A DNA stretch of 4,395 bases from a virus (taxonomy: Duplodnaviria > Heunggongvirae > Uroviricota > Caudoviricetes), in the IMG/VR virus record IMGVR_UViG_2778261572_000003, positions 1 through 4,395 of that record. One strand, given 5' to 3'. The position numbers and the translations under genes are program-made. The number at the start of each line of letters is the position of its first letter. Within the stretch, counting starts at the first letter, position 1. Under the pieces are notes generated by a model that searched no databases, was not told the origin of the DNA, and saw only the letters and a program-made list of their open reading frames with translations. This document shows positions 17 through 2,149 of the stretch, one piece after another.

Positions 17-235
17 TTAACGTGGGTATGTAATCATTCTGGCAATGCTTAATGCCGCTGCTTTTTCCAGCCTGGTGATATCCTGCTCCAGAGCGGACAG
101 ATTTTCAGCCTGCTTAGCCCTGGCTTCATTGGCCCATTTCAGATCCTGCGCTGCATTAATTTTCTGGCGCATCCACTCATAAAGTTCATCATCGGTATAG
201 TCTGGCGCGATGATGACGGGTTCTCGTTTCTGCAT
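17..235 (-). CDS. Hypothetical small early-left protein, 72 aa, predicted coiled-coil or helical
   Basis: Complete ORF with ATG at 233-235 and TAA at 17-19 on the minus strand. A consensus SD (AAGGAG, read from the complement of 241-246) sits 5 nt upstream of the ATG. The protein is charged and helical (DELYEWMRQKINAAQDLKWANEARAKQAENLSALEQDITRLEKAA). The opposite strand in the same register translates to implausible hydrophobic sequence with a stop. Confidence 0.7.
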   Translation of the reverse strand: MQKREPVIIAPDYTDDELYEWMRQKINAAQDLKWANEARAKQAENLSALEQDITRLEKAAALSIARMITYPR

Positions 236-306: not shown

Positions 307-663
307 TTACTCGAGAGGAAATTGGTTATGGATACAATCAAGTTTTCTTGCCCAGAATGTGGTGGCGAAGTCTTTGACACATCCTTTAAGCCGCAGGGCT
401 CTGACAGTTTCGCGGGAGCCATCTGCAAAAATTGTGGTCACCTTGTAACTGAAGATTAGTCCTCGCAGTTCGATGACGAAATCGTTGACAATATCTTCGG
501 TGCACTCACCAGAGACTTTCTGAAATAAAGACGCATACCGCTTAGTTACCGCTCTGATAACTCTTACCTGTCCGGCAATGGCGCTGATGTCAATATAAAG
601 CGCCATTGCTGCTTCTTTGCCGATCCCGTGATGCCTTCCATTCTGATGTTTGACTTCGCCCAC
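307..663 (-). CDS. Hypothetical protein, 118 aa from GTG 661-663 (alternative ATG at 604-606 gives 99 aa); coding status uncertain
   Basis: Only long ORF in 300-800. GTG start is preceded by GAGG 8 nt upstream. It lies downstream of a candidate repressor-controlled leftward promoter at 746-774. Against it: 8 of its 10 Arg codons are rare (AGA/AGG/CGG/CGA), and its C-terminal third is exactly antisense, in codon register, to a zinc-ribbon ORF on the plus strand. The neighbouring 17..235 gene also uses rare Arg codons, so codon usage is not decisive. Confidence 0.4.
   Translation of the reverse strand: MGEVKHQNGRHHGIGKEAAMALYIDISAIAGQVRVIRAVTKRYASLFQKVSGECTEDIVNDFVIELRGLIFSYKVTTIFADGSRETVRALRLKGCVKDFATTFWARKLDCIHNQFPLE
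328..459 (+). CDS. Candidate small zinc-ribbon protein, 43 aa (MDTIKFSCPECGGEVFDTSFKPQGSDSFAGAICKNCGHLVTED), nested antisense in the 307..663 ORF
   Basis: ATG at 328 with GAGAGGAA (313-320) upstream, TAG at 457-459. Two CxxC knuckles (C8/C11 and C33/C36) are spaced as in a zinc ribbon. Codon choice is E. coli-like (GAA, GGT, GGC, CCG, CAG, ATC, AAA). No convincing sigma70 promoter was found in 236-327, and it lies inside a putative leftward operon, so it remains a candidate only. Confidence 0.3.
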   Translation: MDTIKFSCPECGGEVFDTSFKPQGSDSFAGAICKNCGHLVTED

Positions 664-745
664 TGAGAAATCCTCTGTTTCCCCTTAACGCCGGGGTGGC
701 GGAACTTTAGCCTGACAACGATGCGGTTCGTTGTTGATGGAATGA

Positions 746-797
746 ATGGTAAAACTATTGGTTTTATTGGTCAATAGGTAATGGAACATAAAGTTTT
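746..797 (-). promoter_or_regulatory. Putative repressor-controlled leftward (pL-like) promoter with two operator copies
   Basis: On the minus strand: -35 TTGACC (complement of 769-774), 17-nt spacer, -10 TACCAT (complement of 746-751). The spacer contains AAAACTATTGGTTTT (751-765), 14/15 identical to the operator at 1293-1307. A second, weaker AAC-N5-GTTTT site is at 785-797. Tandem TATTGGT repeats sit at 755-761 and 764-770. Confidence 0.45.
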
Positions 798-1256: not shown

Positions 1257-1368
1257 TTTTTAAGTATACAACCAAAGGTTTCACCAATCAGCAAAACTAT
1301 AGGTTTTGTGTTGAAACTTATAGTTTTTGATGGTAGCGTAGGTGAAATTAATAGTACTGGTGGAAAGT
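1257..1368. promoter_or_regulatory. Divergent promoter/operator region (pRM-like leftward, pR-like rightward) with three related operator sites
   Basis: Operators of form AAAAC-N5-GTTTT: AAAACTATAGGTTTT (1293-1307), AAACTTATAGTTTTT (1314-1328), and a degenerate copy ACAACCAAAGGTTTC (1268-1282, 11/15). Centres are 21-25 bp apart. Rightward candidate: -35 TTGAAA (1311-1316), 17-bp spacer, extended -10 TGgTAGCGT (1331-1339). Leftward candidate: -10 TATACT (complement of 1263-1268) with a weak -35. Confidence 0.65.
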
Positions 1369-1644
1369 ATGAGTAATCAAATTCACGATAAGATCTCTAA
1401 AAAAATGTCGAAAACTGACATTGGCAAACACTTTGGCATTAGCTCCCAGGCCGTAGGCAAGTGGTTCATTAAAGGCAAGGTTCCTGCTGAACGCGTGTCG
1501 TCACTCTGTGCATTACTGAATTGGGAAATTACTCCCCACGAACTTCGCCCTGACATTTATCCCAACCCAACAGATGGACTACCTTGTGGAAATAAGTGTA
1601 TGTCGAATGAATCACTGGCGGTGAACAATGATATTCACTCCTGA
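1369..1644 (+). CDS. Cro-like / YdaS-family HTH protein, 91 aa from ATG 1369
   Basis: HTH (IGKHFGISSQAVGKWF) followed by the HELRPD motif I associate with the YdaS/Cro-like family. ATG 1369 is preceded by GGTGG (1359-1363). The ORF-track start at 1342 (GTG) lies upstream of the predicted transcription start, so 1369 is preferred. An ATG at 1405 is also possible but has no SD. Stop TGA at 1642-1644 overlaps the next gene. Confidence 0.75.
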   Translation: MSNQIHDKISKKMSKTDIGKHFGISSQAVGKWFIKGKVPAERVSSLCALLNWEITPHELRPDIYPNPTDGLPCGNKCMSNESLAVNNDIHS

Positions 1645-2149
1645 GCAGGCTCGCGAGGCTCTGGATGCCTGGGTATGCCGACCAGGAATGACGCAGGAGC
1701 AGGCGACGATATTAATCACGGAAGCATTCTGGGCTCTGAAAGAACGCCCGAACATCGATGTTCAACGCGTCACGTTTGATGATGGCGCGGTTGATCAACG
1801 GGCGCTGGGCGTTAACCGGGTGAAGATATTCGAACGCTGGAAAGCGATCGACACCAGGGATAAGCGGGAAAAATTCACGGCGTTGATTCCGGCAATCATG
1901 GAGGCTATCCGGATAAGTGATTTCAGGTTGTATTGTGAAATTACTGATGGAAAAAGCATTACGTACATGCTCGCCGGGTTAAATAAAGAATATGGCGATG
2001 TGGTGGAGTCCGGTCTGCTTTTGGCAGATCCCGCTGTTGTGGAGCGCGAGACTGACGAGCTTATAGAAAAAGCTATTGCTTTCAAGCATGCGTATCGTCA
2101 GCAATATCAACAAAAAGCCGGATGGAATTATGAGTCTTCTTTTTGCTGA
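1628..2149 (+). CDS. YdaT-family protein (CII-position regulator; annotated in databases as putative toxin YdaT), 173 aa
   Basis: Sits second in the rightward operon with a 17-nt overlap onto the Cro-like gene. The segment KIFERWKAIDTRDKREKFTALIPAIMEAI matches my recollection of the conserved YdaT core. The family call is from memory, not a search. Confidence 0.7.
   Translation: MIFTPEQAREALDAWVCRPGMTQEQATILITEAFWALKERPNIDVQRVTFDDGAVDQRALGVNRVKIFERWKAIDTRDKREKFTALIPAIMEAIRISDFRLYCEITDGKSITYMLAGLNKEYGDVVESGLLLADPAVVERETDELIEKAIAFKHAYRQQYQQKAGWNYESSFC

Follow-up and report, generated by a model that had tools for sequence, protein, structure and literature searches.

The dicB promoter (dicBp) of the Qin prophage of E. 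coli K-12 is directly repressed by DicA: deletion of dicA derepresses it 22-fold, and a 165-fold relief of repression is obtained with the antirepressor Rem (PMC10448788). An earlier study, cited in PMC10448788, placed operators both in the dicA-dicC gap and at dicBp and likened the two positions to lambda PR and PL. In another E. coli prophage, CP-933P, the leftward promoter PL933P holds three operators (OL1 to OL3) and is repressed about 100-fold by PaaR2 and YdaS, that is, by both regulators of the prophage (PMC8630535). YdaS itself has been described as a Cro analogue (PMC8630535; PMC11879457).

Here we compare with these systems a 4.4-kb stretch of DNA (the window), which spans the immunity and replication genes of a lambdoid E. 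coli prophage, of the same kind as Qin, Rac and CP-933P. A short segment of the window, at positions 746-797, had been predicted to contain a distal copy of the immunity operator within a repressor-controlled leftward promoter. This original prediction is supported by homology to dicBp, by co-variation with the right operators and by conservation in diverged relatives. On the strength of these sequence comparisons, the segment is very probably the left operator-promoter of a DicA/YdaS/YdaT-type lambdoid immunity module, homologous to Qin dicBp and equivalent to PL933P.

Results

An immunity module with a DicA-like repressor

As a single piece, the whole window is absent from complete E. coli genomes. 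It is a mosaic whose modules occur separately elsewhere at 96-100% identity. The immunity module, which extends from about position 675 to beyond 1640, is found at 99-100% identity in five E. coli genomes; since the copies of this exact module are all at least 99% identical, we read conservation from relatives at 76-80% identity, within a graded series of repressor relatives spanning 46-100% identity. The genes for the repressor, the cro-like protein and the cII-like protein are intact in the window (Table 1), and 3' of the YdaT-family gene lie a replication-initiator-like gene, a gene for a DnaC/YdaV-like ATPase and a DUF977 gene.

Table 1. Annotated and predicted features of the window discussed in the text
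Feature	Position	Strand	Basis and remarks
ydfC	17-235	-	Annotated as such in RefSeq and GenBank records of DNA 96-99% identical; first credible leftward-operon gene in the window
ECs_2282-family zinc-ribbon gene	328-459	+	Scores 47.5 bits with NCBIfam NF047912 (cut-off 37 bits); convergently oriented to the left promoter
Leader RNA (predicted)	664-738	-	Hairpins at 734-715 and 696-681; also present in Qin dicBp and in over 120 viral contigs
-10 hexamer TACCAT	746-751	-	Promoter scan; mediocre -10
Left operator 1, OL1 (predicted)	751-765	-	AAAACCAATAGTTTT; in the promoter spacer, overlapping the first base of the -10
-35 hexamer TTGACC	769-774	-	Promoter scan
Left operator 2, OL2 (predicted, weaker)	783-797	-	AAAACTTTATGTTCC; centre 32 bp upstream of the OL1 centre
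Bidirectional intrinsic terminator (predicted)	808-840	both	14-bp hairpin with flanking A and T tracts; separates the repressor gene from the left promoter
DicA-like repressor, 136 aa	846-1256	-	HTH_3 only (Pfam E = 7e-10)
Right operator cluster (predicted)	1268-1327		Sites 1268-1282 (weaker), 1293-1307 and 1313-1327
YdaS-family cro-like gene	1369-1644	+	Pfam YdaS_toxin, E = 6e-10; RefSeq annotation of identical modules
YdaT-family cII-like gene	1628-2149	+	Pfam YdaT_toxin, above cut-off

We also observed that the mosaic has a junction at about 675-719: the immunity module begins at about 675-678, and the module to its left, known from the phages Evi and PPompW, stops at 705-719. These edges put the junction inside the shared leader and imply that the promoter-operator travels with the repressor; judged from the sequence boundaries, recombination between modules appears to occur within the conserved leader.

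The repressor aligns with K-12 DicA at 30% identity over 100 aa (BLASTP, E = 2e-11), but its score against the NCBIfam DicA model (47.6 bits) is under the 101-bit cut-off, which makes it a DicA homologue and not a DicA equivalog. The Pfam search returned no Peptidase_S24 match, neither Pfam nor NCBIfam gave a match to the RacR family, and a sequence search of the PDB with the repressor gave no meaningful match. RefSeq start calls for this gene disagree, with 121 aa in E423 and 136 aa in SLK172. The repressor ATG (1256, minus strand) follows TATACT by 6 nt and has no Shine-Dalgarno sequence before it (1254-1268); the mRNA is probably leaderless, like those of lambda cI and paaR2, and the sequence suggests that, as in those two cases, the transcript may be self-activated by the repressor (PMC8630535).

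The predicted right operators lie between the repressor and cro-like genes, with centres 25 and 20 bp apart, and form blocks that are conserved in the relatives. By inspection, about 44 bp separate the repressor ATG from the centre of the upstream site at 1293-1307, and the cluster as a whole looks lambda-like.

A putative leftward promoter holds a copy of the operator

The 15-mer AAAACTATTGGTTTT (751-765) differs from the right operator AAAACTATAGGTTTT (1293-1307) by a single mismatch, as originally claimed. When at most one mismatch is allowed, these two are the sole matches in the window, and not one such match arose in 200 dinucleotide-preserving shuffles. With up to three mismatches there are 6 matches against 0.08 expected, five of which are strand-readings of 751-765, 1293-1307 and 1313-1327. 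The shorter pattern AAAC-N5-GTTT, allowing one mismatch, is found 7 times against 2.7 expected (at least 7 matches in 4 of 200 shuffles), and five of the 7 matches fall in 751-797 and 1268-1328.

On the minus strand, the 15-mer (765-751) fills the 17-nt spacer between TTGACC (774-769) and TACCAT (751-746), and a terminator hairpin lies immediately upstream, between this promoter and the repressor gene; both parts of the predicted layout—a repeat inside a -35/-10 spacer, just beyond the repressor terminator—are thus found in the window. The hairpin begins 6 nt past the repressor stop codon (846-848) and was revealed by direct folding of 850-800 (minus strand), at -19 kcal/mol and with z = -7.0. 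The terminator scan did not detect it, probably on account of the A and T tracts, which lengthen the stem. Taken by itself, the promoter scan is not significant, with 2 matches found against 3.0 expected, so that support for the promoter comes from homology.

The second, half-conserved site that had been proposed at 785-797 was recovered as GAACATAAAGTTT (784-796, plus-strand reading), with one mismatch to AAAC-N5-GTTT. Read on the minus strand (797-783), its left half is good and its right half degenerate. Full sites occupy the same position in the 80% and 76% relatives (AAAACTTTTTGTTTT and GAAACTTTTTGTTTT, respectively). In Qin, two of the three right operators predicted from sequence were not bound by DicA in vivo (PMC3441716), and by the same token the weak site at 783-797 may be non-functional. 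Yet another left match, TAACTTATTGTTT at 842-854, likewise has one mismatch to AAAC-N5-GTTT and sits in the 3' end of the repressor gene. We rejected it as a third left operator because it is not conserved in relatives; it is probably a chance match.

Correspondence with Qin dicBp

Aligned by eye with K-12, the minus strand of 664-800 matches the Qin dicB promoter and its leader: K-12 Qin reads cacTTGACCgatatGTTAGTCATGGCTAATCTtgtttgCATCAAC...GTTCCGCTACCCCAGCGTTAAGGGGAAA, and the window reads ctaTTGACCaatAAAACCAATAGTTTTACCATtcattcCATCAAC...GTTCCGCCACCCCGGCGTTAAGGGGAAA. Broken down into its elements, the Qin sequence downstream of dicA is GTTAGCTATAGCATAC-aaaatcac-TTGACC-gatat-GTTAGTCATGGCTAATCT-tgtttg-CATCAAC..., with the leader ending in GTTCCGCTACCCCAGCGTTAAGGGGAAA just before ydfA, and the minus strand of the window is AAAACTTTATGTTCC-attaccta-TTGACC-aat-AAAACCAATAGTTTTACCAT-tcattc-CATCAAC...GTTCCGCCACCCCGGCGTTAAGGGGAAA. 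The -35 hexamer, the operator in the spacer, the second site about three helical turns upstream and the leader all correspond, and the operator sequence alone differs, being GTTAG-N6-CTAAC in Qin and AAAAC-N5-GTTTT in the window.

The two loci share a TTGACC -35 followed by a 17-nt spacer that contains an operator (TTGACC-17-TAATCT in K-12), a second site some 32-35 bp further upstream (35 bp in Qin, 32 in the window), a leader of the form CATCAAC...GTTCCGCYACCCCRGCGTTAAGGGGAAA, and ydfC and dicB downstream. In both, the promoter lies 3' of, and in the same orientation as, a gene for a short HTH repressor (about 135 aa) without a cleavage domain. The spacer site of Qin resembles the proven DicA operator Oc, TTGTTAGTCATAACTAACAA (PMC3441716), and OL1 of the window is placed as this DicA operator is in dicBp. 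Besides the operator and the repressor, which is only 30% identical to DicA, the differences concern the neighbouring elements: the window has a terminator between the repressor gene and the leftward promoter, its rightward genes are of the YdaS/YdaT type instead of the DicC/YdfX type, and an inverted zinc-ribbon gene takes the place of Qin ydfA-ydfB.

Comparison with CP-933P, Rac and lambda

Like the window, CP-933P combines a cI-like repressor with YdaS and with YdaT, a CII analogue (PMC8630535), and by analogy the two would share a layout in which the right operators are repeated at a second promoter located past the repressor operon. In CP-933P, however, PaaR2 is co-transcribed with the toxin-antitoxin pair paaA2-parE2, whereas the repressor gene of the window is directly followed by a terminator. 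The operators differ as well, with a repeat consensus of GTTTAGTAA and three left operators in CP-933P (PMC8630535) against AAAAC-N5-GTTTT and two left sites in the window. The accessible part of the report on Rac (PMC11879457) describes the same gene order of repressor, YdaS and YdaT and several repressor sites in the divergent intergenic region, and that part contains no mention of a left operator-promoter; the Rac repressor and operators are unrelated in sequence to those of the window, as far as tested.

The locus had also been likened to lambda OL/pL, and this likeness stands for the layout of operator clusters and leftward promoter. As in lambda, the repressor gene is located between two operator clusters of one consensus, the left one of which overlaps a promoter directed away from that gene and towards the early-left operon. 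The likeness does not extend to three operators and a cleavable repressor. Lambda has three tandem operators spaced by about 24 bp, whereas the window has two left sites (centres 758 and 790) that are 32 bp apart, and the C-terminal S24 domain through which the lambda repressor is cleaved with RecA is lacking from the window repressor. Moreover, lambda rexAB has no counterpart between the repressor gene and the promoter, and we found neither an N-like ORF or family match in the window nor a recognisable nut site in the leader, where a search of Rfam with E values up to 1 also returned nothing relevant; the leader does, on the other hand, carry two conserved hairpins (see below). From these sequence features, the likeness to lambda OL/pL would be one of working arrangement, and the membership that of the Qin dicBp-type promoter-operator family.

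The spacer operator co-varies with the right operators

A motif scan of related prophages had been suggested as a check of the original prediction. Scanning IMG/VR with the leader motif retrieved more than 120 contigs. The promoter-operator has been replaced in the majority of contigs that possess the 3' half of the leader. Where the promoter is retained immediately before the leader, at least seven operator types occur on one scaffold. For six independent immunity classes, the best 12-, 14- and 16-mer match of the spacer 20-mer is to the repressor-cro gap of its own class, and with each of the three word sizes no other of the 720 permutations scores as high as the true pairing. The spacer operator therefore co-varies with the operators of the repressor-cro gap across the six classes. 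In a first co-variation matrix, with targets reaching 1 kb upstream, the background was excessive (10-12 of 14), and the diagonal separated once the targets were narrowed to the 250-nt intergenic zone. When the 1-kb upstream region was searched without restriction, the best own match was located 520-660 bp upstream in 25 of the 27 loci, which corresponds to the divergent intergenic region. A second co-variation test, within the closer repressor subfamily, was marginal (1 of 120 permutations at word size 14 and 8 of 120 at word size 12), and its weakness is explained by the fact that the operators of this subfamily are all related.

The graded series of relatives shows the same pattern at the level of single positions. 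In the 76-80% relatives the recognition helix SHTAVRKWATG is identical, and AAAAC/GTTTT is kept at both left sites, OL1 included, and at all right sites, together with TTGAC and a -10 of the form T-A-x-x-x-T; variation is found in the five central base pairs of the site and in its flanks. In relatives with an altered helix, the half-sites are altered left and right alike (GAAAG/GAAAC, CAAG...CTTG and TGAAAC...GTTTCA). Among the promoter elements, most immunity classes have the TTGAC core at one and the same distance from the conserved leader, one class having TTGCC instead and some relatives TTTACA or CTTGTA, and the -10 reads TAATAT or TAATGT in relatives, positions 1, 2 and 6 being invariant.

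Could the repeat nevertheless have arisen by chance, or be a non-functional relic in a prophage undergoing decay? The region is AT-rich, promoter-like matches are common, and the adjacent zinc-ribbon gene is broken (see below), all of which would fit such a view. Yet no match was found in 200 shuffles, the position is identical to that of the Qin dicBp site, the site co-varies with the right operators across classes and is conserved in diverged relatives, and the repressor, cro-like and cII-like genes are intact. Chance similarity of 751-765 was rejected on the shuffles, the co-variation and the conservation, and we hold the broader explanation, relic included, to be very improbable.

A different question is whether repression of the leftward promoter is the main role of a genuine site. 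Across classes, the left and right operators stay about 520-660 bp apart. Octamers are formed by lambda CI and by PaaR2, and looping between OL and OR has been proposed for CP-933P (PMC8630535). It is therefore conceivable that the site chiefly serves as a partner of the right operators in repressor looping, tightening control of the cro-side and repressor promoters, or, given that YdaS also represses PL933P (PMC8630535), that it is mainly a target of YdaS. Still, in every class the site lies exactly in the spacer of the conserved promoter, and the homologous dicBp is directly repressed by its repressor (PMC10448788). Roles of this kind can coexist with occlusion of the promoter, without replacing it, and as the main role of the site we consider them possible but rather unlikely. 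The reading we prefer is thus repression of the leftward promoter: its homology to dicBp and the co-variation lead us to infer that 746-797 has promoter activity and is bound by the repressor.

A shared leader and the leftward targets

The leftward transcript would start near A738 and begin with the predicted leader. The stem of its hairpin 1 is ACAACGA/TCGTTGT in the window, ACACC/GGTGT in Qin and GCAC/GTGC in others, with one A-U to G-C double change in L140, and that of hairpin 2 is CCCC/GGGG in the window and GGCCA/TGGCT or CCGG/CCGG elsewhere. In single-sequence folds, both hairpins thus appear to persist across heteroimmune prophages despite their differing stem sequences. When the leaders were aligned with MAFFT and folded with RNAalifold, the two hairpins were not recovered; another stem, of 4 bp, was proposed instead. 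It is tempting to speculate that the leader (738-664) is an uncharacterised cis-acting RNA of DicA-type prophages—be it for stabilising the 5' end, for gating translation of the first gene or, in phages that have no N gene, for antitermination in place of nutL—and that the transcript additionally silences an inserted convergent gene by antisense on induction, although we regard this proposal as tentative and somewhat doubtful. In about 70 IMG/VR contigs (e.g., L004, L006, L008 and L010), another, well conserved stretch of about 120 nt (CCCCACAGAATGCAGGGCAATACTTCGAGTTACC...) occupies the place of the promoter-operator upstream of GTTCCGC...GGGGAAA.

As targets of the promoter, two leftward ORFs had been named. 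One of them, ydfC, holds up. The other, a 118-aa ORF on the minus strand (307-663) that would have been the first gene of the operon, does not: it overlaps the plus-strand zinc-ribbon gene, and across eight homologous sequences 6 of the 9 substitutions in the overlap fall at codon position 3 of the plus-strand gene, which is position 1 of the minus-strand ORF. This pattern favours the plus frame; the ORF was rejected for that reason and is probably a shadow of the zinc-ribbon gene. The same ORF is carried as a gene in the records of the phages Evi and PPompW. Just upstream of ydfC, we noted a 37-nt block (258-294) that recurs in about 19 otherwise different viral contigs, in 17 at 100% and in 2 at 97% identity; judged from its position alone, it is probably the 3' end of ydfB.

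The dicF and dicB genes lie beyond the window and are found further left after the same module in SLK172 and E423. In SLK172 the immunity module is joined to the canonical ydfA-ydfB...dicB arrangement, and in E423 directly to ydfC. That the module occurs with differing left neighbours in these two genomes again indicates that the left promoter travels with the repressor. From this gene order, the leftward targets would be the ydfC...dicF-dicB operon, with the dicF/dicB-type genes outside the window.

Between the promoter and ydfC, the conserved gene is the zinc-ribbon gene on the plus strand, whose homologue in TUM1881 is annotated in RefSeq with 66 aa. In the window, the nonsense change G457T, which no other copy has, cuts it from 66 to 43 aa. 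The presence of a conserved plus-strand gene at this place raises the alternative that the leftward promoter is chiefly its convergent antisense partner, such that the zinc-ribbon gene would be expressed during lysogeny and, on induction, shut off through collision or antisense RNA; the bidirectional terminator at 808-840 would then halt plus-strand transcripts ahead of the repressor gene. Antisense control is not the general role, however, since the same module drives canonical ydfA-ydfB-...-dicB without the insert. In addition, the promoter scan found no convincing plus-strand promoter upstream of 328, and in the window the gene carries the nonsense mutation. We therefore judge this alternative improbable, and retain the ydfC...dicF-dicB operon as the likely target.

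Discussion

Taken together, the comparisons point to the following mode of action. During lysogeny, the 136-aa HTH repressor would bind as a dimer to the 15-bp operator AAAAC-N5-GTTTT at 751-765, whose half-site centres are 10 bp, or one helical turn, apart. The bound repressor would cover the spacer between TTGACC and TACCAT together with the initial base of the -10, leaving no access for RNA polymerase. Cooperative binding is probably contributed by the weaker site some three turns upstream (783-797), and looping may bring the left sites together with the three right ones at a distance of about 540 bp.

Upon inactivation of the repressor, transcription would begin near 738. As the repressor has no RecA-cleavable (S24) domain, we propose an induction of the antirepressor type; inactivation would probably be brought about by an antirepressor or, alternatively, by instability of the repressor as for DicA (PMC10448788). 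The transcript would run leftward through the two-hairpin leader to ydfC and into the dicF/dicB early-left operon beyond the window, and it would pass, in antisense, through the inserted plus-strand zinc-ribbon gene before reaching ydfC.

An exact-string literature search with four spellings of the operator retrieved no paper. The AAAAC-N5-GTTTT specificity thus appears to be new to the literature searched, while the layout of operator and promoter is already known from Qin and CP-933P. In this sense, the understanding of such switches is unchanged: the arrangement had been described for Qin (PMC10448788, which cites the earlier study) and was retested in 2021-2023. What is gained is a probable function for a short intergenic stretch and what would be a new immunity specificity in the DicA/YdaS/YdaT family of E. 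coli prophages, in which the operator AAAAC-N5-GTTTT goes with the recognition helix SHTAVRKWATG. The comparative set, with its at least seven operator types on one promoter-leader scaffold, provides data for relating residues of the HTH recognition helix to operator half-sites. For the biology of these prophages, knowledge of this specificity helps to predict which of them are co-immune and at what point the toxic cell-division inhibitors dicF/dicB come on.
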